DNA of 64,000 nucleotides from Candidatus Thorarchaeota archaeon (GTDB lineage: Archaea; Asgardarchaeota; Thorarchaeia; Thorarchaeales; Thorarchaeaceae). A program made the position numbers and the translations under genes. The stretch spans positions 38,028 to 102,027 of the forward strand of contig DXJO01000001.1 in assembly GCA_019057475.1 (NCBI GenBank), given 5' to 3'. A model generated the notes under the pieces. The model made no database searches, had not been told where the DNA came from, and saw nothing but the letters and a program-made list of their open reading frames with translations. Positions 1,419 through 40,053 of this stretch are shown piece after piece; within the stretch, counting starts at the first letter, position 1; every line of letters begins with the position of its first letter.

Positions 1419-2267
1419 ATGCTAACTATCCGACAGGGCGGCATGCGCGATTGCAAAGATCTCCTAGACGTATTCATGAGCACACATTGGACTAAGAAAT
1501 ACACCACTGTTGAGCAAGTGAAGTCAGCCCATCGAGGGATTGCCTTCCAAAAATGGGGCTGGCTAGTAGCTGAAGTGAAAGACCGTGTTGTTGGTGAAGT
1601 TCTATTCCGTGTTGAGAAGAATCCCGTGGTTGGACGGATTGGCATCATAACTGACATAGGAGTCGATGTACGGTATCAGAAGAAAGGGATTGGTACGAAG
1701 CTGGTGGCAGCTGCCGAGAGCGCACTCAAAGACAAGAAGGCTAGTCGTTTGGTTGCTACTTCGCCTCCAGATGTTTACAACTTCTGGATGAAGATGAAAT
1801 GGTTCGCAAGGGGTTCTTTGATGGATATTGAGGCTTCGCCCTCGAAGATACCTATCAAGAATACAACAAAAGTTCGCACGATGTGTCTTGAGAATGTCAC
1901 GAAGCTCCCGAAGTCAATGCTGTTTTCCAATGTAGCATATCCCGGTTTGCTTGCAGAAACCGCAAGCGCAGTCGTTGATGGTGGACGACGGGGTGAGCTT
2001 TTCGAGTTCTATTCTGAGGACGCTCTCGTCGGCGTGGGCGTCTGCGCAGACTACGGGGACAGGACAGCCATGTTTGTGGCAGACATCACTGTGAGTGGGG
2101 CGCAGTACTTTGATGTTATCATATCTCGAATTGCTAGAGTAGCCCTTCAGTTGAAGGCGCGAACTGTTACATCGACAATCCCAAGCGACAAGGTCCAATC
2201 CTATGGGGGCCGCACTCATTGGTCTTCTCGCCTTGCTAGAAACATCCCAATCACGAAACTAATCTGA
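1419..2267 (+). CDS. GNAT family N-acetyltransferase (two-domain)
   Basis: Acetyl-CoA motif VDVRYQKKGIGTKLV; likely start is ATG 1419 (MLTIRQGG). Confidence 0.8.
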   Translation: MLTIRQGGMRDCKDLLDVFMSTHWTKKYTTVEQVKSAHRGIAFQKWGWLVAEVKDRVVGEVLFRVEKNPVVGRIGIITDIGVDVRYQKKGIGTKLVAAAESALKDKKASRLVATSPPDVYNFWMKMKWFARGSLMDIEASPSKIPIKNTTKVRTMCLENVTKLPKSMLFSNVAYPGLLAETASAVVDGGRRGELFEFYSEDALVGVGVCADYGDRTAMFVADITVSGAQYFDVIISRIARVALQLKARTVTSTIPSDKVQSYGGRTHWSSRLARNIPITKLI

Positions 2268-3830
2268 TTCGTCTATCACAAATGGAATTGTCCAGTTTGC
2301 AAAGATAAGCGCAATACCAATTGCCCAGATACTGCTCAGATTGAAATGCCACACCATCAATGGATATGTTGTCACACCAAGAGCGAGAAATACCACTGCA
2401 ATCACGATAATGAAGATCAAGTCCACGATTAGGACTGGCTTGATTGGTTGACCATTCTTCTTACGCAGTATAGGTATGAAAGCAGCAATTCCAAGGAGAA
2501 GAAGCAAACTACCAATCTCCTCAATCCGGATTGAAGCAAAACCGAATTTCTTCTCGACCTCTCCTTTCTCTCCTTCATCGGTGGTGATGACAACCTTAAC
2601 ATCGTGCTCGAACTTTGTGTAATTGCCCACATCAATGAGGAAAGTGTTCTGGCCGGCTGTTACTGTGATGCTCACGAGACCAGCAACTTCATCTCCATCA
2701 ACATAAACAGTCATATTGACTGTGTCCCAAGTCGTGGTGATGTTCACCGTGAACTCAGTAAGACCCACAACCATCTGCTCTGAGCCAATGAATTCTACAA
2801 TAGGCACACCGTGATTGTCTACAACAAGAGCCAACAAGGTTTCGTATTTGTGTCCCAACTGATCATAGGCCTTGAACGTGAAGTTGTGCTCTCCCTCTGA
2901 GTAACCAGTTGTATTGAGGTAGAAGGCTGACCTTCCCGCGGGAACCGTGATATTTGCTACATCGGGGGCTATTATGTCATCAACAAGTACTGAAAATGTT
3001 ACATTTTCGAAAGGAGTTTCCACAACAACCTCGACCTCAGCATTTCCTGAAATCGCGTCATAGTGTGCAAGACCTCTCACAAAGAAGAATACATAGTCGA
3101 GGAAGTAATAGCTTCTTGTTATCGAAACCTCAAGCCCTTCTTCGGTGTATATCGCAATCCCAATATCGAAGATGCCGTTTTCGTAGCGACTACAATTGAT
3201 AGTCAGGTTCCTCAGTCCCACGGAAACCAGGGTTTGATTGTATTCCTGTGTTATCTCATCATTGACAGTGACGTTAACAAAGACTTGAGAATAGTCTGAC
3301 GAGACGTTGACTAACAGGTCTGAAAGGCCCGTAAGCGTAGAATCCGCTTCCGGCCCTATCAATTCAAGAGTCGGTGGGCCATGGTTATCGACGGTGAACA
3401 CCAATGTGTAGCTCTCTCTATCTGGTGGCGTAAAGGTTTCATTCTCAAACAGCATGGTGAAGTTTAGTTTCCCCTCAGACAAGATTGTCGTGTTTACCGT
3501 GATGTTGTTTAATCCGGTGCCTATGAGGGTCTGATTGTAGTCAGCATGGATCTCTCCCTCTATGAATAGGGTGAGATTTAATGGACCATTGACAGAGGTG
3601 ATATTGACTGTCATATTGAACGTACCAGACACGGTGCTTTGGTTTGCTATGTTTGAGAGAGTAATGGAGATATTCTTTGATTCAAAGCCCGCCCTAATCA
3701 TTGACTGTGATGAGAATCCAATTCCAGTTAGACCTTCAGTGTCCGACTCTGCCAAAGGCTGCATTCGGATTGATCCAACGATCAATGCTGATATAATTAT
3801 GAGCGCTAGTAGTGTACTTGTCTTTCTCAT
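2259..3830 (-). CDS. Membrane-anchored surface protein with repeated Ig-like domains
   Basis: Signal peptide, about four internal repeats (VDNHG.P motif twice), many N-x-S/T sequons, three C-terminal TM helices. Confidence 0.7.
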   Translation of the reverse strand: MRKTSTLLALIIISALIVGSIRMQPLAESDTEGLTGIGFSSQSMIRAGFESKNISITLSNIANQSTVSGTFNMTVNITSVNGPLNLTLFIEGEIHADYNQTLIGTGLNNITVNTTILSEGKLNFTMLFENETFTPPDRESYTLVFTVDNHGPPTLELIGPEADSTLTGLSDLLVNVSSDYSQVFVNVTVNDEITQEYNQTLVSVGLRNLTINCSRYENGIFDIGIAIYTEEGLEVSITRSYYFLDYVFFFVRGLAHYDAISGNAEVEVVVETPFENVTFSVLVDDIIAPDVANITVPAGRSAFYLNTTGYSEGEHNFTFKAYDQLGHKYETLLALVVDNHGVPIVEFIGSEQMVVGLTEFTVNITTTWDTVNMTVYVDGDEVAGLVSITVTAGQNTFLIDVGNYTKFEHDVKVVITTDEGEKGEVEKKFGFASIRIEEIGSLLLLLGIAAFIPILRKKNGQPIKPVLIVDLIFIIVIAVVFLALGVTTYPLMVWHFNLSSIWAIGIALIFANWTIPFVIDESD

Positions 3831-3916
3831 CGTAGAGCCTTCCTGACAAACAGTGACCTGAAGTCGGGCCGTTGGGCCAGAGTTCTGAGTCCGTTTTTAA
3901 AGATAGCGCCAGTTTC

Positions 3917-3932
3917 ATAGTCGTACAACTAT
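3917..3932. promoter_or_regulatory. Putative operator upstream of the glycyl-radical enzyme operon
   Basis: ATAGTCGTACAACTAT is a 16-bp palindrome with one mismatched pair, 55 bp upstream of ATG 3987. Confidence 0.45.
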
Positions 3933-3986
3933 ATTGTTATAGGGCACTAGTCACGGAATTTATCGAACTCAACCGTGGTGTAGCAG

Positions 3987-6389
3987 ATGACTGTTGGCAA
4001 CGATGAAGCAGCTTCCATAGATGTATGGTCGCATTCCAAGAAGCTCTCTTCAAGAGTGAAGAAGCTGCGGGGACAATTCTACTCCTTTGATGAACGAACT
4101 GAAACGAACGAGCCTTACGCGTTCTCAACAGGGACTCCCTGGGACCACGTGTACTCATTCCATGATTGGGCAAACGAGCCAGCCTTCTACATATTTCGGG
4201 CATCTATTAGGGAATCCCTCAGCGCTATGGCAGTTGACCTCGAACTACCCGATGATTTCTGGGATCACACACTGCCAATGCGCAGAGCTATTGTGTTCCA
4301 TGAAGCAATGACGCACTACATGCCCACTCTCATCCTCGATGGTGAGATGATAGTAGGCTTTCATTTCAATACGGCTCTCTCAAGGGCATTGAATAAGAGA
4401 GAGGCGAAAAAACGGAATAAGGAGATGAATAAGTGGTTCAAGAAGGCCAGCCGTCTCAACGAGTTCGGCGTGGGGACTGCAAGTGCCACTCCTGGACACA
4501 TCATTCCCAACTACGCGAAGGTCCTTCGAGTGGGTTTCCGTGGTTTGGTGGATGAGTACGAGAATATACTGAAACAGCCAATCTCCTCTGAACACAGGGA
4601 GTTCGTTAAGGCACTTATTCTAACATGCAAAACGGCACGTGCTGTCAACCGGAGATATGCCAAGGAATCTCAAAAATTAGCTGGGGTCGAGTCCGATTCG
4701 CTGCGCAAGGAGGAGCTTGAGGAGATCGCACGCATCTGCAACAAAGTACCTTGGGAGCCTGCGGAGACCTTCTGGGAAGCTTTGCAGTCACTATGGACAA
4801 CCCACATGCTCGTGATGGCCGCGGAATCTTATCCTGGTGCAGGACTCTCACATGGCAGATGGGACCAGTACATGTATCCCTACTACCGTGCAACCATCGA
4901 ATCCGGAGAGATGACTCGCGAAGAGGCCAAGGAGCTAATGGAGTGCTACTGGATAAAGCACAACTATGTGTATGACTTCCAAGGAAGCCTCGGAATTAAC
5001 CAAGGAATCAACTCTGGTTTCGGACAGCTAATAACTCTGAGTGGTTGTGGACCGAATGGCGAAGATATGACAAATGACTTGACCTGGCTTGCTCTTGAGG
5101 TAATCGATGAGATGAATCTTCTCGAGCCCAAACCTAACATCCGCTTGCACAAGAATACTCCACAGGAGTTCCTTCTGCGCGTCGCTGAGATGGTCGCAAA
5201 GGCTCAGGGTTCACCGTTCCTCATGAACTTCGATGAACACAGCATTGAAGGAATGGTCTGGCAAGGGGTACCACGAGAAGAGGCTTGGGATTACGGTATT
5301 GTTGGCTGTCTTGAGAACACAATGCAAGGGAACGATCGATCTGGAACTGTGGACGTAAACATCAACCTTGCCAAGGCTGTTGAGCTTGCGCTGAATAATG
5401 GCAAGGATGTTGCTACGGGAAAGCAGGTGGGTCCCAAGACTGGTGATCCATTGAAGTTTACATCTTTTGAAGACTTCATGGCAGCAGTGAAGAAACAGCT
5501 GGCCCACACAGTCAAACTTCTGATTGACTGCGGCAACATGGCTGATACGCTTCGGGCGAAGTATCAGCCAGTTCCATATCTGAGTGCTCTCATGGATGGC
5601 TGTGCCGCGCGCGGGAGGGATGTAAACCAAGGTGGAACGGACTGGAACTTCATAACATTGGAAGGAATGGGCATCGCTACTTTGACAGACTCAGTCGCTG
5701 CAGTCAAGAAGATGGTCTATGAAGATAAACGTCTAACGATGGAGCATCTACTCAAGGCACTTGAGGCTAATTTTGAAGGCTTTGAGGAAACACGGCAACT
5801 CTTGAAGTCGAAGGCTCCTAGATTCGGCAATGATGATGACTACGCAGACTCGATTGCACAAGAGCTTACAACGTTTTGGGCTGAAGAAACCTTCAAGCGC
5901 AGTAATCCCTATACTGGTCGGAGATACCGTGCTGGCTATCTTAGCTGGAACTACTACATCCCTCTTGCTCCTTTGACTGCCGCTACTCCGGATGGGCGTC
6001 GCCGAGGCGAATTTCTCTCTGGTGGCGTTGGCGCCGTTCAGGGGATGGACACGAGGGGTCCCACCGCATCAATACAATCTGTGGGCAAGCTAGGTCTCGA
6101 AGTGGTTCCGAATGGTGCATCTCATACAATTACAATCAGTCCCTCCATGGTCCAAACCCGCGAGCATATTGAAAAGCTGGCTGCGCTCCTAAGAGCGTAC
6201 AACGAAGTAGGTGGCACAGCGCTGCAAATCAACGTTATCGATGCAGAAACTCTTAGGGATGCACAGAAGAACCCTGACCAGTATTCAAATCTGCTAATCC
6301 GCGTGACTGGATACAATGCTTTCTTCACTCAAATAGGACGAGAGCTTCAAGCGGAAATCATTGCGAGAACGGAGCATACTGTGCAATGA
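3987..6389 (+). CDS. Glycyl-radical enzyme (PFL superfamily, not canonical PFL; substrate unknown)
   Basis: Glycyl-radical loop LLIRVTGYNAFF, single-Cys loop GIVGCLE, PAETFWEALQ, GRWDQY, ATPDGR; 800 aa. Confidence 0.95.
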   Translation: MTVGNDEAASIDVWSHSKKLSSRVKKLRGQFYSFDERTETNEPYAFSTGTPWDHVYSFHDWANEPAFYIFRASIRESLSAMAVDLELPDDFWDHTLPMRRAIVFHEAMTHYMPTLILDGEMIVGFHFNTALSRALNKREAKKRNKEMNKWFKKASRLNEFGVGTASATPGHIIPNYAKVLRVGFRGLVDEYENILKQPISSEHREFVKALILTCKTARAVNRRYAKESQKLAGVESDSLRKEELEEIARICNKVPWEPAETFWEALQSLWTTHMLVMAAESYPGAGLSHGRWDQYMYPYYRATIESGEMTREEAKELMECYWIKHNYVYDFQGSLGINQGINSGFGQLITLSGCGPNGEDMTNDLTWLALEVIDEMNLLEPKPNIRLHKNTPQEFLLRVAEMVAKAQGSPFLMNFDEHSIEGMVWQGVPREEAWDYGIVGCLENTMQGNDRSGTVDVNINLAKAVELALNNGKDVATGKQVGPKTGDPLKFTSFEDFMAAVKKQLAHTVKLLIDCGNMADTLRAKYQPVPYLSALMDGCAARGRDVNQGGTDWNFITLEGMGIATLTDSVAAVKKMVYEDKRLTMEHLLKALEANFEGFEETRQLLKSKAPRFGNDDDYADSIAQELTTFWAEETFKRSNPYTGRRYRAGYLSWNYYIPLAPLTAATPDGRRRGEFLSGGVGAVQGMDTRGPTASIQSVGKLGLEVVPNGASHTITISPSMVQTREHIEKLAALLRAYNEVGGTALQINVIDAETLRDAQKNPDQYSNLLIRVTGYNAFFTQIGRELQAEIIARTEHTVQ

Positions 6390-7369
6390 CTACAACAAGT
6401 GGTATCATTACCAATATCCAAAGATGCTCCACGGAGGACGGTCCAGGTATTAGGACAACTGTCTTCATGAAGGGCTGTCCCCTTCGCTGTAGCTGGTGTC
6501 ACAATATCGAAACAATCAATGCTGAACCGCAGATTGTCTGGTATGCTTCGAAGTGCATCGGGGATGAAGCGTGTATCGAAGCTTGCTTGCAGGAGGTTCT
6601 ACAGCTCACACCTGAAGGTATGCAGATTAGCCGCGCGAATTGCATTGCGTGTGGAAGTTGTGTGAGTGCTTGCCCCACGGGCGCGATTAAACTAATGGGC
6701 GAAACTTGGGATGCCACTGCATTAGTTGAGGAGCTCATCCGTGACAAAACGTTCTTTGAAACCTCTGGCGGCGGTGTAACGATATCCGGAGGGGAACCCG
6801 CTTACCAGGCTGACTTCGTCACAGAAATAGCTTCAGGTCTAAGAGAGAAAGGCATCCATGTTGCCTTGGATACCTGCGGATACTGCAGCGAGAATGTGAT
6901 GGAGAAAATGCTTGAACATGTTGACATGGTGCTGTACGATCTGAAGCAAATGGATCCAGCGAAGCATGAGGAGTACACCGGTGTACCATTGGAAAAAGTA
7001 CTGCAAAACGCTCGCCAAGTAGCATCAAGCGGAAAAACCATGTGGGTTCGAACTCCCGTCATTCCTGGTCACACTGAAAGCACAGATAATATCCGTGCCA
7101 TCGCAGATTTCATTGTCAAGGAGTTGCCCAATGCAGAACGATACGATCTTCTCGCGTTCAACAAGATGTGCCTTGACAAGTACGCACTGTTTGGCCTTGA
7201 GTACCCCTTGAAGGATTATGACCTAATGAGCGAGGACGCAATGAGCAAGCTCTGTTCAATCGCTACAGATCGGGGTGTGTCGAACGTACACTGGTCCGGA
7301 ATGACAAAGCATGAGTCCGGTAAGAAATCGATGACTATTCCAAACAAGGAGGTCAATCGCTGTGGTTGA
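6386..7369 (+). CDS. Glycyl-radical enzyme activating enzyme (radical SAM with ferredoxin insert)
   Basis: DGPGIRTTVFMKGCPLRCSWCHN, auxiliary CIGDEACIEAC and CIACGSCVSACP, GGVTISGGEP; overlaps the GRE stop (ATGA). Confidence 0.95.
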   Translation: MTTTSGIITNIQRCSTEDGPGIRTTVFMKGCPLRCSWCHNIETINAEPQIVWYASKCIGDEACIEACLQEVLQLTPEGMQISRANCIACGSCVSACPTGAIKLMGETWDATALVEELIRDKTFFETSGGGVTISGGEPAYQADFVTEIASGLREKGIHVALDTCGYCSENVMEKMLEHVDMVLYDLKQMDPAKHEEYTGVPLEKVLQNARQVASSGKTMWVRTPVIPGHTESTDNIRAIADFIVKELPNAERYDLLAFNKMCLDKYALFGLEYPLKDYDLMSEDAMSKLCSIATDRGVSNVHWSGMTKHESGKKSMTIPNKEVNRCG

Positions 7370-8189
7370 AATACTGTCCGAAGAGCTAGTTGAAACATTG
7401 AAACCTCTTTTGAACCCCAAGTTTATGGCGACCAAAGATAACACTGGCGAGCCCAATATTGCTCTAGTCCTGTCGTGGACTATATACTCCGACGGTAAGA
7501 GGCTCGTTTACGGCGAGTTCATGAATAATAAGACTAGAAAAAATCTTGAGGCCGGCAATAATGAGATTGGACTTCTAGTGATGAATACTGACCTTGATAA
7601 TTGGATGATTCGGGCTGATTTCGAGTCGTATCACAGGAATGACGAAATCTACGAGTTCATGGTAATGACGCCGCTCTTCAAATACAATCAGTATACAAGT
7701 GCACGTTCGGTTGGCGTGGCACACCCTCTATGGTCCAGTCCCAACTATAGATTCTCAAAGCCGTCAGTCTTGTCGTCATACGTCAAGGCGAAGCTAGCCG
7801 CTAGAAAGATTCCGACAGCTAAGACCGATGAAGGCAACATGCCTAGGAATGTCATGGAGCGTTTCAGCCGGATGGTAGCAGTAAAGGCGATTGCATTTGT
7901 GGAGGATGATGGCTATCTCTCGTTGTTCCCTTCATTTGGCATTGTCCCGGTATCTTCGAATCGACTTGTTGTGCATAGAAGCGAGGAGAAACGAAGGGGA
8001 TTTGAACTCAAGGATGATCAACGAGTAGCAGTATCACTCGCTACACTTGAACCGGCAGCATTTCAAGTGAAGGGTACGTTTAGAGTGATTAGTGATAGCG
8101 TTGGCGTTATTGATCTAGACCGAGTTTATGCCTGTTCACTTCCTCGACCGGGCGTGAGGGTGGATCTTCCAATGTTAGAGCGGGTTTAG
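7362..8189 (+). CDS. Tandem pyridoxamine 5'-phosphate oxidase-like (FMN-binding split-barrel) protein
   Basis: Two repeats: KFMATKDNTGEPNI...KTRKNL and KAIAFVEDDGY...AFQVKGTF; overlaps the activase by 8 nt. Confidence 0.7.
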   Translation: MVEILSEELVETLKPLLNPKFMATKDNTGEPNIALVLSWTIYSDGKRLVYGEFMNNKTRKNLEAGNNEIGLLVMNTDLDNWMIRADFESYHRNDEIYEFMVMTPLFKYNQYTSARSVGVAHPLWSSPNYRFSKPSVLSSYVKAKLAARKIPTAKTDEGNMPRNVMERFSRMVAVKAIAFVEDDGYLSLFPSFGIVPVSSNRLVVHRSEEKRRGFELKDDQRVAVSLATLEPAAFQVKGTFRVISDSVGVIDLDRVYACSLPRPGVRVDLPMLERV

Positions 8190-8265
8190 CTACTTGACAT
8201 GAGAGCTTCGTCACACAGCAATCCTTTTTTGTCTGGCCAAATGGCACGCGAGCGGAGGTTCTCTC

Positions 8266-8799
8266 ATGAAGCCAACTCAGTTGGAGTCCAAGGATGGCAG
8301 AATAATAACCACACGCCATGCCAATCCAAAAGACGCAAGAGACCTTCATAGTGGCTTTCGGCAGGTAGTCGAGGAGGGGTTGTGGCTACCTACCCTTGCA
8401 CCCAACGCGTCTGTTGATGATTGGGTGACCTGGATTCAGCGCACTCATCATTGCAGAGAGGTTCTGCTAGTTGCGCATGTGGATGGTTTGTATGCCGGGC
8501 ACCTGACGCTTCAGCCAGAAGAGTGGACCGCATCGCAGCACGTTGCTAAGTTGGGAATCATAGTTCTCAGCGATTTCCGGAGTATAGGTGTGGGTCGGGC
8601 GCTAATGCTCGAAGCGGAAACTGCCGCTGTCAAAAGGGCCTTTGAGAAAATTGTTCTAAGCACCTTCGAGAGTAATTCGATGGCTTTGTCACTCTACGAG
8701 TCACTCGGTTATCGAATTGTGGGGCGAAGAGCGCGTCATTTCAGGATGCCGAAAGGCTTTATCGATGAAGTGCTTATGGAAAAGGCGTTAGACGTCTAA
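8266..8799 (+). CDS. GNAT family N-acetyltransferase
   Basis: LGIIVLSDFRSIGVGRALM, N..A.SLYESLGY, DEVLMEK. Confidence 0.9.
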   Translation: MKPTQLESKDGRIITTRHANPKDARDLHSGFRQVVEEGLWLPTLAPNASVDDWVTWIQRTHHCREVLLVAHVDGLYAGHLTLQPEEWTASQHVAKLGIIVLSDFRSIGVGRALMLEAETAAVKRAFEKIVLSTFESNSMALSLYESLGYRIVGRRARHFRMPKGFIDEVLMEKALDV

Positions 8800-8825: not shown

Positions 8826-9335
8826 ATGTGGCAGCAGATTGTCGAGCGTTTCAATGATATGCCTCTCAGGCTGAAAGTTGCAAGAGCGTTGATTTGTCAC
8901 GGTTTCCACATCGAAGCCCCGGGAGTTATCAAATGCATGGACGTGCGAATACCTCTCAAGGCGATAGGTGACGCGCTAGATGTGGACCGGCGAACCGTTC
9001 GCGCAACAACTGAGGATGTCTGCAATGACGAGGCCATCTTCAAGTTCTTCTCCCTAATTCGTCCAGCAGGAGCATCGCTTGAGAAGGTGGCGAAGCTTCT
9101 GGGATACGGGGTCGTGACAATCTACGTAGAGAGTCCTGAGGACCCCGGTATTCTATCACAGGTTACCTCAACCATATCGGGTCATGGTGTTTCGATACGC
9201 CAAGTGCTAGCTGAGGATGCTGCCATTTGCGAAGAAGCCTGTTTGAAGGTCGTGACTGAAGAGCCAATGAAAGGGGCCGCGATAGAGGCGCTGGCTTCCA
9301 TACCAGGAGTCAACCGCGTGATTATCGAAAGATAG
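8826..9335 (+). CDS. Archaeal ACT-domain regulator of amino acid metabolism (COG2150-like)
   Basis: MW..I...F start, IGDALDVDRRTV HTH-like segment, C-terminal ACT domain (PGILSQVTSTISGHGVSIRQV). Confidence 0.85.
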   Translation: MWQQIVERFNDMPLRLKVARALICHGFHIEAPGVIKCMDVRIPLKAIGDALDVDRRTVRATTEDVCNDEAIFKFFSLIRPAGASLEKVAKLLGYGVVTIYVESPEDPGILSQVTSTISGHGVSIRQVLAEDAAICEEACLKVVTEEPMKGAAIEALASIPGVNRVIIER

Positions 9336-9407: not shown

Positions 9408-10694
9408 ATGGAATCTGTTAGATCTGAAACCGATGCACAGCAGGAGAAAACGGTTTCCTCCAGCAGCATGAGGCAGGTTTTAGCGCTCGCGCTGTCCTTG
9501 AGCATTCTACAGATTGGTTTTGGCATCATCATGCCCATCTTCCCATTCTACATCATCGAGCTAGGAGTGGGCGCAACCGAGTTGGGAATACTTGCGGCCT
9601 CCTTTGCAATAGCAAGGATTGTGCTGGCTGGCCCGTTAGGACGGCTATCGGATAAGGTTGGCAGGAAACCGGTTTTGACATTTGCGCTCGTGGGTTTTGC
9701 TGCAGCTAATGTCATCTATGCATTTGCTGATACAATTCTTGTGATGATTGCAGCACGAGTGCTTGAGGGTGCAGTTTCCGCAGGCTTCTTTCCGGCGGCC
9801 AATGCCTACGTTTCAGACGTCACGACGGTTGAGAACAGAGGAAAGGCAATGGGCTATCTCAGTATGGGTAGCAATGTTGGTTTTGTCGTGGGCCCGACTG
9901 TTGGAGGTATCATGGCTCAATTCTTGGGCTTCAGGCTTCCTTTCATAGTAGCTGCTGGTGCTACGCTTTTCACTTTGCTCCTTATCCTAGTGCTAATACA
10001 TGAGCCGGATCGTCAGGTTGCGACACGTGAACTGGATACGAGAAAGGCGCCATCACTTCGCGAAGTATTTAGCTTCAATCGAAAGGCATACAGTGTTCTT
10101 GGATTTGCCATGTTTGCAACCATGTTTTCGATTGGTATCCTCGAGGTCGCATTCATGATAGACGCGGTTGTAAGGCTCGGAATCACACCCATCGAGATAG
10201 GCGCATTCTTTGGGATCATGGGTATGGTCATGATTATTGGAAGCGCAGTCTTTGGTTCGATATCAGACAGCGTTGGAAGAACACCCCTGATCGTGGTCGG
10301 CTCGTTTATTGGCACAATTGCGATGTTCATATTTGCACTTGCTTCTTCGTTCTTCGATCTCGCCATCGCTGGCTTGGTCCTGGGAATCGGCTTTTCAATG
10401 AGAGGTCCTTCCATTCAAGCTCTTATTGCCGACCTCACACATCCTCGTTCCTACGGGGCTGTCATGGGTGCATATGGCGCGGTAAGCAACAGCGCCTATG
10501 TTGTTGGCCCCTTGCTTGGAGGTTATCTCTACGACCAGCTAGGTACTTCAGTAGTGAGTCTAATTATTGGCGCATGGGTAGCGACTGCTGGTGGAGTCGC
10601 TGCGTGGGTAGGGCTTCCTATGAGCACAAAGCCTGTTTGTGAGGCAGTTCAAACAGAATCCTCCACAGAGAAGGGTTCACAGATTTCTGACTGA
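9408..10694 (+). CDS. MFS transporter (DHA1/TetA-like)
   Basis: Motif A GRLSDKVGRK repeated as GSISDSVGR; 12 hydrophobic segments. Confidence 0.92.
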   Translation: MESVRSETDAQQEKTVSSSSMRQVLALALSLSILQIGFGIIMPIFPFYIIELGVGATELGILAASFAIARIVLAGPLGRLSDKVGRKPVLTFALVGFAAANVIYAFADTILVMIAARVLEGAVSAGFFPAANAYVSDVTTVENRGKAMGYLSMGSNVGFVVGPTVGGIMAQFLGFRLPFIVAAGATLFTLLLILVLIHEPDRQVATRELDTRKAPSLREVFSFNRKAYSVLGFAMFATMFSIGILEVAFMIDAVVRLGITPIEIGAFFGIMGMVMIIGSAVFGSISDSVGRTPLIVVGSFIGTIAMFIFALASSFFDLAIAGLVLGIGFSMRGPSIQALIADLTHPRSYGAVMGAYGAVSNSAYVVGPLLGGYLYDQLGTSVVSLIIGAWVATAGGVAAWVGLPMSTKPVCEAVQTESSTEKGSQISD

Positions 10695-37680: not shown

Positions 37681-40053
37681 ATGCCGAAAGTTGGGAGAGT
37701 AGTATTATCTATCTTATTCACTAGTGTGTTACTTGCTGGTCAAGCAATGCCGATTGTTAATGCGGCCTATGCCACATTATACGAGGTCACATATTCGCAA
37801 GACTTGCAGGCTGATGATAACGGTCATACATACCTCTATGTCCCTGAGAATGATCCTTTGTTTTACTCCGCGTCAGGGTTGGTTCATGACTCAGATATGA
37901 ATTACGCTGAATATCTGTACTACCAAGACTATTGGGTCAGAGCCCCTCATTCCATGTCGGGAATAGGTGAAAAGAAGGATTTCATTCAAGCCAGCGCAAT
38001 TACCATAGCGGATTGGCTTCTCGATGCATCGATAATGCCGAAGTTCTATGACTTTGCAAACTCAACGAATTCGTATGATCTGGACATCGATAACAAGCAA
38101 GTCTATTTTGGTGTTCCAGTAGGTGGTGAGGTTTCCGTAATCCTTGACCCTATGGTAGCATATTTTGGAGTGTTCAATGTCACTACGGAAGAGTTCTTTC
38201 ACCTTACTGTCACGTCCCGCCAGGATTTGACAGATATAATAATCATCATTCAAGACCAAATGGGACGCTTAATGAACTATGACTACCTACAGAATGGAAA
38301 CATCCATGTAATTCCATTTGCTCCTGATGGTCCGGGGATGTATGTTATCGGAATTTACGCCACCGCTGATAATGCAGGTCTTCCGATTGTAGACCTCTTA
38401 CTGAAGGCGATTACTCCTGATGAATTGCTACTAGGTGGGATTGTTGAAGGGGTACTGTCAGGAAGTGAGCTTGTTGTAAAGAACGGCGCTGGAGATACAG
38501 TGCACCAAGAAAAAGCACCATCAGCTCACACATTCAAATTCAGTTCCAACTACACCCATCCTGGAAAACTAAGATACTCCATGAACTTTCCAGAGCTAGA
38601 TGACGATGTTTATGACCCCTTTGAGACCGAGCTCCAGATCACTACCGATACCACCTATACAATGACTGGTGGGTATGCCAAGTATCTTTCAATGCCTGAC
38701 CCTAATGGCGATACTATCTATTATCAGTCCTTCCAGAATGAAACATATTACTTCACGATAATGGGAATGGAAGAAACCACGTACACACTTCTAAATGAGA
38801 TACCCGATGTCCCACTACTCCCATTGAGTACACCGTTCTATCTTGAGAGCTGGAATATCGGTGCACAGAGGTTTGCATATAGACTTCCTCTCGCCACTGA
38901 CTCACTTCTCAAAATTAATACTACTAACCCTTCAGGCTTCTCATGGAGGATCTACAGAACTTTCGGGGACAATATCTATCGGGTCGCGTATCCTACGGAT
39001 GCATCATCCTTCCATACTGCTAAACCACTTTATCTTCCAGCTGGCAGCTACCTTGTTGTTGGAACTGCAGGAGGAATGGACTACAACGCCGTCACTCAAT
39101 TTACACTTGGGCCAGTGTTGGATGGTGTAGGCGGAGTGGCTGTTGACAACGGTGGAATCATTGGTGTTCGAGTGCCAACTGATGCAATGACCTTCTACAG
39201 GGTGAATGTTACTCTCGAGACTCATGACAACGTTTCTGTAAGAGCTGATGTAGATATTCTGAACCGATATGGTATCATCCTTCGCGGAACTCAACCTCAA
39301 CTTGGCAATATTCAATCAGGAACCGGCTGGGTTGAATACGGTTCAAACCGTAGTACGGTGGTGATGGGGCTCCCGCCCTTTTATGATATGTTCTGCGATG
39401 GCTTTGGAATCATCGCCATAAGTCCATACGAAGTCCGGAATAACACAGGCTTTTCTCTTACCAACGAATTTGGCACCTACACGGCAGACTATTCAGTCAC
39501 CGTAGAAGACTACTTGTCTGGTTTTATGAATGGGACAAATACTGCTACAGTAACTAGCAGTCCTCAGTGGTCTAACTTTACTCTAGGTGAACCAGGAGAT
39601 CCCTTTGAATGGTATATGATTGACATGTCCTGCGAAGCTGGCACATGGTTCAATGTTACATACTTGGCCCAGGATATTTCCTCCATGAACCAGATTTTCA
39701 TCTATCAAAGACACAAAGGCTGTGTCCAGATGTTGGACCTCGACAATAGTCTTGTGAACACATTTGCTGGAGACACAAGCAGAGCCCAATTCCAGTTTGG
39801 TAGCATCTCAGATGGTCTGTATATCATCTTCTCAATTGCTCGTGATACAGGATTGGAAGGTTCACTTGACGTCTTGATATCACCCTACTTGACAAATCAA
39901 TACGAGTATCCACCTGCGCCTGTGTACGTTGCATCGCCCTCGGCGGGCGGTATCATACCACTCGCCATAGATCCTCTCATCCTATTTGGTGGAGTTGGAA
40001 TCGCAGTAGTGATAGTTGCTGTTGTCCTCGTTAAGAAGAGAGGTGCTGCATAA
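37681..40053 (+). CDS. Secreted beta-rich surface protein with C-terminal TM anchor
   Basis: Signal peptide, aromatic/beta-rich body, TM helix plus KKRG tail; intact paralog of 23610-25978. Confidence 0.8.
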   Translation: MPKVGRVVLSILFTSVLLAGQAMPIVNAAYATLYEVTYSQDLQADDNGHTYLYVPENDPLFYSASGLVHDSDMNYAEYLYYQDYWVRAPHSMSGIGEKKDFIQASAITIADWLLDASIMPKFYDFANSTNSYDLDIDNKQVYFGVPVGGEVSVILDPMVAYFGVFNVTTEEFFHLTVTSRQDLTDIIIIIQDQMGRLMNYDYLQNGNIHVIPFAPDGPGMYVIGIYATADNAGLPIVDLLLKAITPDELLLGGIVEGVLSGSELVVKNGAGDTVHQEKAPSAHTFKFSSNYTHPGKLRYSMNFPELDDDVYDPFETELQITTDTTYTMTGGYAKYLSMPDPNGDTIYYQSFQNETYYFTIMGMEETTYTLLNEIPDVPLLPLSTPFYLESWNIGAQRFAYRLPLATDSLLKINTTNPSGFSWRIYRTFGDNIYRVAYPTDASSFHTAKPLYLPAGSYLVVGTAGGMDYNAVTQFTLGPVLDGVGGVAVDNGGIIGVRVPTDAMTFYRVNVTLETHDNVSVRADVDILNRYGIILRGTQPQLGNIQSGTGWVEYGSNRSTVVMGLPPFYDMFCDGFGIIAISPYEVRNNTGFSLTNEFGTYTADYSVTVEDYLSGFMNGTNTATVTSSPQWSNFTLGEPGDPFEWYMIDMSCEAGTWFNVTYLAQDISSMNQIFIYQRHKGCVQMLDLDNSLVNTFAGDTSRAQFQFGSISDGLYIIFSIARDTGLEGSLDVLISPYLTNQYEYPPAPVYVASPSAGGIIPLAIDPLILFGGVGIAVVIVAVVLVKKRGAA

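Follow-up and report, generated by a model that had tools for sequence, protein, structure and literature searches.

A glycyl-radical enzyme of no characterised class and its conserved split-barrel neighbour in Thorarchaeota and other anaerobes

Introduction

What does a glycyl-radical enzyme (GRE) that fits no characterised class do in an archaeon, and what does the tandem split-barrel protein encoded beside it contribute? The question is raised by a three-gene operon of a Candidatus Thorarchaeota archaeon (NCBI GenBank assembly GCA_019057475.1, contig DXJO01000001.1), at positions 3987 to 8189 of the stretch of DNA analysed here (the window: 64,000 nucleotides, positions 38,028 to 102,027 of the contig's forward strand; coordinates below are those of the window unless another contig or locus is named). 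The explanation I favour, with fair rather than firm confidence, is that the operon would encode a member of an uncharacterised PFL2-type GRE clade, of the Cys-x-Glu (CxE) eliminase/isomerase type, together with its activase and an accessory protein specific to that clade.

GREs carry out very hard anaerobic reactions, and new substrate classes (choline, hydroxyproline, isethionate, anhydro-sugars) have opened new metabolism. By the count of a 2026 review from the Drennan group, CxE is shared by six C-O, one C-N and three C-S eliminases and by three isomerases, and HPAD, BSS and MASS are the only GREs reported to have small subunits, all of them resembling high-potential iron-sulfur protein (HiPIP) or rubredoxin. 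According to the same review every GRE of known function that resembles pyruvate formate-lyase (PFL) is bacterial, with no archaeal one assigned. In full-text literature searches no account of a GRE partnered by a split-barrel or PNPOx protein came up, the sole related item being LssP, to which I return below. Models of Asgard metabolism now label the gene 'pyruvate formate-lyase' or 'alkylsuccinate synthase', and solving its reaction would add to them.

Results and discussion

A glycyl-radical enzyme outside the characterised classes

The operon consists of three mutually overlapping open reading frames:

3987..6389, + strand: GRE gene, 800 amino acids (aa); PF02901 and PF01228; CxE loop; Gly775
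6386..7369, + strand: GRE activase gene, 327 aa; TIGR02494; Radical_SAM and Fer4
7362..8189, + strand: tandem split-barrel gene, 275 aa, GTG start; N-barrel at about 7362-7766, linker helix, C-barrel at about 7839-8186

An ATGA at 6386-6389 is common to the GRE stop and the activase start, and the barrel gene, whose GTG is at 7362, overlaps the end of the activase gene (stop at 7367-7369) by 8 nt. In a Pfam scan the first protein is PFL-like plus Gly_radical, the second Radical_SAM plus Fer4, and the third a weak PNPOx_N. An earlier reading of this DNA, made from the letters and their translations (the sequence-only reading), had already described three overlapping genes, a GRE of unrecognised class with a single-Cys GCLE loop in place of Cys-Cys, and a tandem barrel as its partner, and all of this held up. 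So did its remark that genes for a bacterial microcompartment shell, an aldehyde or alcohol dehydrogenase, or an iron-sulfur (Fe-S) small subunit are missing nearby: Pfam and NCBIfam scans found none of them within 10 kb of the trio.

The first protein, an oxygen-sensitive radical enzyme, has the hallmarks of the superfamily, namely a PFL-like barrel (PF02901, 513.8 bits, 1e-153), a C-terminal glycine-radical domain with RVxG[FWY] (PF01228, 98.6 bits, 4e-28) and a Cys in the middle of the barrel. Its catalytic residues are His171, Cys441-Leu-Glu443 (GCLE at 440) and Gly775, which lies in RVTGYNA (at 772). The pocket segments picked out by the sequence-only reading are where it placed them: ATPGHII at 167, ESYPGAGLS at 280, GINSGFGQ at 340, DRSGTVD at 450 and GYLSWNYYI at 650. 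The Cys-x-Glu that characterises 1,2-eliminases and isomerases is present as C441-L-E443 and is invariant in 26 clade members. Identity as a pyruvate formate-lyase was considered and rejected, since a motif search found no Cys-Cys pair in the whole protein, the PFL equivalog TIGR01255 gives 129.8 bits for a cut-off of 994, and the structural Z score against PFL is 26 compared with 35 for eliminases.

Judged by hidden Markov model cut-offs, PDB alignments and structural scores, on which the class assignment rests, the GRE belongs to no characterised class. Against the NCBIfam equivalogs (bits/cut-off) it scores 493/1100 for HypD, 481/1000 for HpsG, 431/1000 for HpfG and 427/1050 for CutC (427-493 bits against cut-offs of 1000-1100 for these four), and 400/1109 for the PflD type; the models for indoleacetate decarboxylase (340 bits) and hydroxyphenylacetate decarboxylase (294 bits) have cut-offs of 1000-1150. 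Even the broader PFL2/glycerol dehydratase subfamily TIGR01774 returns 525.4 bits for a cut-off of 678.2, with a match that begins at profile position 151; on this model the genome's two paralogous GREs reach 770 and 821. The AlphaFold 2 (AF2) model of the GRE (mean predicted local distance difference test, pLDDT, 85) superposes on solved GREs over residues 17-798. Its scores against solved eliminases and isomerases are all tied (Z 33-36, about 28-35% identity), and it scores 29.6-31 against fumarate-adding enzymes. The N-terminal 165 residues are too divergent for the Pfam profile. A new N-terminal domain was entertained for this region and rejected: because known GREs can be superposed on the model from residue 17 onwards, the region is divergent in sequence and holds no new domain.

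A different identity has been published. Zhang et al. (2021) called the GREs of Hermod- and Thorarchaeota alkyl/benzylsuccinate synthases, on the grounds of 29-33% identity to AssA/BssA and a single-Cys loop. The Thorarchaeota GRE, however, has the eliminase CxE glutamate and the histidine of strand beta-1, and eliminases match it far better in sequence (441 bits for the top match in a PDB search, glycerol dehydratase 1r8w, compared with 240-243 for TutD and MasD) as well as in structure (Z 33-36 against 29.6-31). Furthermore, all characterised X-succinate synthases (XSS) possess beta, gamma or delta Fe-S subunits, whereas neither the operon nor the 10 kb around it contains a gene for one, and the only partner protein has a single Cys. 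The alkyl/benzylsuccinate synthase label does not fit the Thorarchaeota GRE, and I regard a fumarate-adding reaction as very improbable.

The substrate pocket and the likely chemistry

The closest comparison is with glycerol dehydratase DhaB1/DhaB2 (Clostridium butyricum, 1r8w/1r9d) and 1,2-propanediol dehydratase (5i2a, 9rco-9rcr). These have the same ten-stranded barrel (Z 35-36, 32-35% identity) and share with the Thorarchaeota system the Gly loop, the Cys-x-Glu loop, the beta-1 His (H164 = H171) and an activase with a ferredoxin-like insert. They differ in loop sequence, with CVEPQ and RVAGYSA where the Thorarchaeota GRE has CLENT and RVTGYNA, and in gene content, since the split-barrel partner is present here and the microcompartment and 1,3-propanediol genes are absent. 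PflD/YbiW isomerases (C-O cleavage of 1,5-anhydro-hexitol-6-phosphate; 8id0, 8id7), HypD, CutC and IslA/HpsG have tied structural scores (Z 33-35) and carry out CxE-dependent C-O, C-N or C-S cleavage beside a hydroxyl-bearing carbon; they have no protein partner besides the activase, whereas the Thorarchaeota GRE has the barrel.

The pocket itself is unlike that of the dehydratases. Of the diol-binding residues of 1r8w (H164, H281/S282, Y339, D447 and Y640), the GRE keeps only H164, as H171; in the sequence alignment H281/S282 become A285/G286, Y339 becomes G346, D447 becomes V455 and Y640 becomes L652. Across 26 clade members from bacteria and Asgard archaea (43-59% identity) the pocket is invariant at H171, Y282-P-G, G286, S288, G346-Q347, C441, E443-N-T, D450, S452-G-T-V455, R648, L652-S-W-N-Y656 and G775. 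A pocket that is invariant across the clade and unlike the known ones argues for a single conserved substrate, distinct from every substrate known so far. Beyond its reactive hydroxyl this substrate is probably larger or more hydrophobic, and the pocket would likewise be roomier or more hydrophobic past the reactive centre, to judge from the aligned positions.

Could the protein nevertheless be a divergent orthologue of a known dehydratase (glycerol, 1,2-propanediol or HypD), with the barrel as an incidental neighbour? Glycerol dehydratase is its top sequence match in the PDB, and the catalytic His, Cys and Glu are common to both. Yet the glycerol-binding positions are replaced by residues that are themselves invariant in the clade, the scores are below half of the equivalog cut-offs, and the barrel neighbour is kept at hundreds of loci, archaeal as well as bacterial, all of which makes this identity hardly credible.

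The activase passes TIGR02494 with ease (326.8 bits, cut-off 174). It carries the radical-SAM cysteines C31-x3-C35-x2-C38 (CX3CX2C) and, in a ferredoxin-like insert typical of non-PFL activases, the sets C57/C63/C67 and C86/C89/C92/C96. Given the conserved GRE apparatus, its radical-SAM cluster and two auxiliary clusters would place the radical on Gly775, from where it would move to Cys441, which would then take a hydrogen from the carbon bearing the hydroxyl or next to it. Glu443 would deprotonate that hydroxyl and His171 would protonate the leaving group; the neighbouring C-O (or C-N or C-S) bond would break, and the product radical would regain the hydrogen. Proposed in this form, the chemistry would be that of an eliminase or isomerase, as in glycerol dehydratase, HypD, CutC or PflD/YbiW.

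A tandem split-barrel partner without an iron-sulfur site

The third protein matches PF01243 (PNPOx_N) weakly, at 31.6 bits for a cut-off of 28.1. Its AF2 model (pLDDT 88) consists of two beta-barrels linked by a helix, and by fold it falls within the PNPOx-like/FMN-binding split-barrel superfamily: the N-half (residues 1-131) matches HupZ (Z 16.6), 3in6 (16.4), YviC (14.9) and the Desulfovibrio vulgaris flavin mononucleotide (FMN)-binding protein (14.7). The family profile matches HupZ with an E value of 2e-10, as does, more weakly, the profile of the C-half alone, for which HupZ is the top match (E 0.016). BLASTP between the two halves gives no match; hhalign profile-profile comparison aligns them with 97.6% probability (E 3.9e-12).

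The fold of each half is thus that of HupZ (Streptococcus pyogenes, 5esc/7kpz), of COG3576 (2htd, 3in6) and of the D. vulgaris protein (1axj). Those proteins are homodimers of about 120-150 aa, whereas the partner consists of two diverged copies in one chain, joined by a helical linker. Unlike HupZ, its N-half has an extra helix with an invariant Tyr108, and His111 of HupZ is not conserved. In two Asgard families (G117:C1:305486-305812, G002-G004, G118) the barrel match covers the N-half only, in open frames of 136-162 aa, and in G117 this shorter form still adjoins activase and GRE; in such cases the partner may consist of a single barrel.

With one Cys and three His in 275 aa, the barrel protein has no Fe-S site and cannot be a GRE subunit of the HiPIP or rubredoxin type, which has the corresponding fold and a Cys4 or Cys3His site. 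Like BSS beta/gamma, HPAD gamma and MASS beta/gamma/delta, it is a small protein encoded beside one GRE clade and inherited with it. GRE small subunits are thought to control stability, substrate access or how the glycyl-radical domain moves. Those of BSS, HPAD and MASS are HiPIP- or rubredoxin-like with Cys4 sites, while the partner here is a tandem split barrel with a single Cys, and they accompany decarboxylases or fumarate-adding enzymes, while the barrel accompanies an eliminase-type GRE. Most likely, the barrel would be a new kind of accessory subunit without an Fe-S cluster, or a ligand-handling partner, and the clade could define a new type of GRE accessory subunit. The nearest precedent is LssP (PMC12583861), an expressed PNPOx-family protein encoded beside the GRE catalytic subunit in a limonenylsuccinate synthase operon, whose role was left unexplained there. 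That operon is fumarate-adding with Fe-S small subunits, and LssP is likened to the barrel by family description, not by sequence.

The first role that the sequence-only reading suggested for the barrel, processing of the product by a flavin- or F420-binding protein, would make it a flavoenzyme that acts downstream of the GRE; a reactive carbonyl or enamine, say, might be reduced or isomerised. The fold family is rich in reductases that depend on FMN, FAD or F420, the barrel gene is translationally coupled to the operon, and aldehyde dehydrogenases that flank the module in Christensenellaceae loci show that product-processing genes can sit nearby. The conservation of the family points the other way. 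Only T24, P31, G51, F53, Y108, P190, G238, G248, P261, G264 and one more Gly column are at least 90% conserved in 37 family members; these roughly ten residues, mostly Gly, Pro and Phe, are unlike those of a dedicated flavoenzyme, and the same alignment has no conserved basic residues for a flavin phosphate. Moreover, evolution is 2.2 times faster in the barrel than in the GRE, HupZ as the barrel's nearest relative in sequence binds haem and not flavin, and no further pathway genes are conserved across loci. The barrel may bind a flavin; that it is a downstream flavoenzyme seems to me unlikely, if worth keeping in mind.

A trio conserved in two domains of life

Whether the split-barrel gene is a conserved neighbour across taxa had been set beforehand as a test on which the sequence-only reading of the module could fail, and the association proved strongly conserved in Asgard families and bacteria alike. 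The order GRE-activase-barrel is found in all 29 other Thorarchaeaceae loci. In other Asgard families the full trio is present in 16 of 20 loci, with barrels only 24-37% identical; of the remaining four, two place the barrel straight after the GRE, one is interrupted by an assembly gap and one is without the GRE. The barrel family is of modest size: 141 clusters at E<1e-30 and 711 at E<1e-3 came out of a profile search against 1.84 billion representatives, some of them annotated as metagenome-assembled genomes (MAGs) of Bacillota or Pseudomonadota.

Bacterial and metagenome loci were gathered with single bacterial barrels as seeds, the barrel alignment itself being without a sufficiently conserved stretch. 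This search yielded five Bacillota/Christensenellales MAG loci with the trio, as well as 80 loci from metagenomes. In 41 of the latter the sequence upstream of the barrel extends for at least 3.6 kb, and 39 of these have a GRE and a same-strand activase there; the GRE is 43-46% identical to the Thorarchaeota GRE from about residue 31. In four loci (L037, L038, L100 and L117) no activase separates the GRE from the barrel next to it. Beyond the trio there is no widely conserved gene, whether neighbours were clustered in 21 and then 62 loci or the 147 nearest neighbours were compared with Pfam. The clade occurs in about half of the sampled Asgard genomes and in several anaerobic bacterial phyla.

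In some bacterial and metagenome loci a second PFL2-type GRE lies directly 3' of the barrel, giving the order GRE1-activase-barrel-GRE2 (L070:8845-11232, L082:8932-11310, L130:8863-11232 and L091:1527-3365). This second enzyme has about 790 aa and, where scanned, 611-634 bits on TIGR01774.

The barrel's partner: GRE or activase?

The 400 Asgard genomes searched, many of them incomplete MAGs, include 174 with the barrel, 188 with the clade-specific N-terminal region of the GRE and 289 with a GRE activase. A comparison of the lists by hand gives 165 genomes with both barrel and GRE, 23 with the GRE only, 9 with the barrel only and 203 with neither. Lineages rich in activase and poor in the GRE are also poor in the barrel: the counts for activase versus barrel/GRE are 13/17 versus 1/17 in g13, 11/12 versus 2/12 in f13, and 9/19 versus 0-1/19 in f14. 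Pairwise divergence in 37 trios follows the same pattern, with a correlation between GRE and barrel of 0.94 (partial 0.87) and a partial correlation between activase and barrel, given the GRE, of -0.08, in comparisons that are confounded by shared ancestry and saturation and are not phylogenetically independent. Co-occurrence, GRE-barrel adjacency and divergence agree with one another: it is to the GRE clade that the barrel belongs, and it does not help activases in general.

These data bear directly on the suggestion that the barrel is a dedicated electron donor, a substitute for flavodoxin that reduces the [4Fe-4S] cluster of the activase. The sequence-only reading had offered this as one role of the barrel, and there is something to commend it: the barrel start overlaps the activase stop, the protein resembles the small FMN-binding redox protein of Desulfovibrio, the PFL activase of E. 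coli uses flavodoxin, and the operon carries the only activase of the genome. On the other hand, some 115 Asgard genomes have an activase without a barrel (289 against 174), the barrel occurs where the GRE clade does, GRE and barrel remain neighbours even where no activase intervenes, the partial correlation with activase divergence is close to zero, and the cofactor site is poorly conserved. An electron donor is therefore disfavoured, and I consider it decidedly unlikely.

The preferred explanation, a GRE clade with its own accessory protein, has evidence to contend with as well. Besides the confounding of the distance correlations, the pocket was mapped from a sequence alignment to 1r8w and not from coordinates. 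The N-barrel retains a Ser/Thr-Lys-x-Asn stretch like that of small FMN-binding proteins, so that it may yet have a flavin role. A search for longer forms of the barrel, itself a weak search, found no GRE-barrel or activase-barrel fusions. Finally, the activase of the operon is the sole GRE activase detected in a 96%-complete genome that holds three GREs; with one activase for three GREs, the operon might provide for the remaining two as well, and activation might be the step at which the barrel acts. All of these points weigh against the explanation that I favour.

Neighbouring genes and a possible substrate

Three genes follow the operon, and the sequence-only reading had overlooked that they are conserved downstream of it within Thorarchaeaceae:

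8266..8799, + strand: GNAT N-acetyltransferase (PF00583)
8826..9335, + strand: TrpY-family-like regulator with helix-turn-helix and ACT domains (NF053754, 163 bits, cut-off 180)
9408..10694, + strand: DHA-type transporter of the major facilitator superfamily (MFS) (PF07690, 1e-67)

The GNAT gene comes directly after the trio; a tblastn search of the 29 other Thorarchaeaceae loci detects it 3' of the barrel in 27, with 53-97% identity. The TrpY-like regulator is present in 23 of the 29, a count limited by locus length, and the 5' end of the MFS transporter gene stands at the locus edge in at least 17. None of the three was found at the trio loci of other Asgard archaea or bacteria. Their synteny across Thorarchaeaceae genera, at 53-97% identity for the three genes, hints that the substrate may be an amine or amino-acid-like compound, or that the function may be one of detoxification.

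An upstream GntR regulator of the FadR/FCD type is frequent in bacterial loci; it occurs at 9 of 62 loci and accounts for 6 of the 147 nearest neighbours. Such ligand-sensing regulators nearby argue for an inducible catabolic function. Other neighbours are scattered: aldehyde dehydrogenases, a GFO/IDH/MocA oxidoreductase, GDPD, an MFS transporter, an FAD oxidoreductase, SCP2, a carboxylesterase, an acyltransferase and an acyl-CoA synthetase. The lipid and aldehyde theme among them is a lead only.

Followed to its end, this lead would make the clade a new functional class of GRE whose substrate is a lipid-derived amphiphile; in its glycerol or otherwise hydroxylated head a C-O bond, perhaps that of an ether, would be cleaved, and the barrel, as a new GRE subunit type free of metal, would bind or present the hydrophobic part of substrate or product. 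Several observations fit such a reading without showing it: the catalytic His, Cys and Glu are kept while the distal polar pocket has turned into Gly, Gly, Val and Leu; conservation of the barrel is poor, and no charged site is found in it; and lipid-related neighbours, FadR-type regulators included, are scattered over the loci. I would give it a slim chance. If true, it would mean an oxygen-independent route into ether or otherwise recalcitrant lipids for anaerobic sediments, and for Asgard archaea in particular.

Other features of the window and the genome

Signals that might govern expression of the operon were read from the DNA:

3831..3986, + strand: intergenic leader/promoter region of the operon
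7346..7353, + strand: AAGGAGGT, Shine-Dalgarno-like, 8 nt 5' of the barrel GTG, its function presumed
8225..8230, + strand: T6 run, 36 nt past the barrel stop

The leader has A/T boxes (TTTTTAAAG at 3894-3902 and TATATT at 3930-3935), and a GTGGTG run stands directly 5' of the GRE ATG; by inference only, these might be TATA/BRE or ribosome-binding signals. The T6 run is a possible archaeal terminator.

Two further genes of the window lie close to the operon:

2259..3830, - strand: divergent 523-aa protein with a signal/anchor segment, N-x-S/T sequons, immunoglobulin (Ig)-like repeats and C-terminal transmembrane helices
10701..11540, - strand: Memo-like AmmeMemoRadiSam system protein B, roughly 2.5 kb downstream of the operon

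The 523-aa protein, which has dozens of N-x-S/T sequons and repeated Ig-like segments, has no match in Pfam or NCBIfam and no counterpart beside the module in relatives. No link was seen between the Memo-like gene and the GRE module. A ThiN gene is also among the window genes surrounding the operon. Together with the nearest homologues, ThiN, the TrpY-like regulator, the Memo-like protein and the sequon-rich surface protein of 523 aa assign the window to Thorarchaeota, within the Asgard archaea. Elsewhere, in six loci of one Asgard family (f22; L042-L051), the module lies beside DUF447, an MptD-like archaeal dihydroneopterin aldolase, a GHMP kinase and a gene related to AIR synthase, which is probably lineage synteny of genes for tetrahydromethanopterin-type biosynthesis.

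The two other PFL2-type GREs of the Thorarchaeota genome are at 10761-12683 of contig C39 (L140:5983-8364) and at 70291-72231 of contig C40 (L141:5986-8358). Both pass TIGR01774 and no equivalog model, and neither adjoins an activase; thus a single activase may serve all three GREs of the genome. The enzyme on C39 is encoded between an aminotransferase gene and genes for a KDG-kinase-like protein and a KDPG/KHG aldolase, a setting that suggests a radical dehydratase or isomerase linked to sugar acids.

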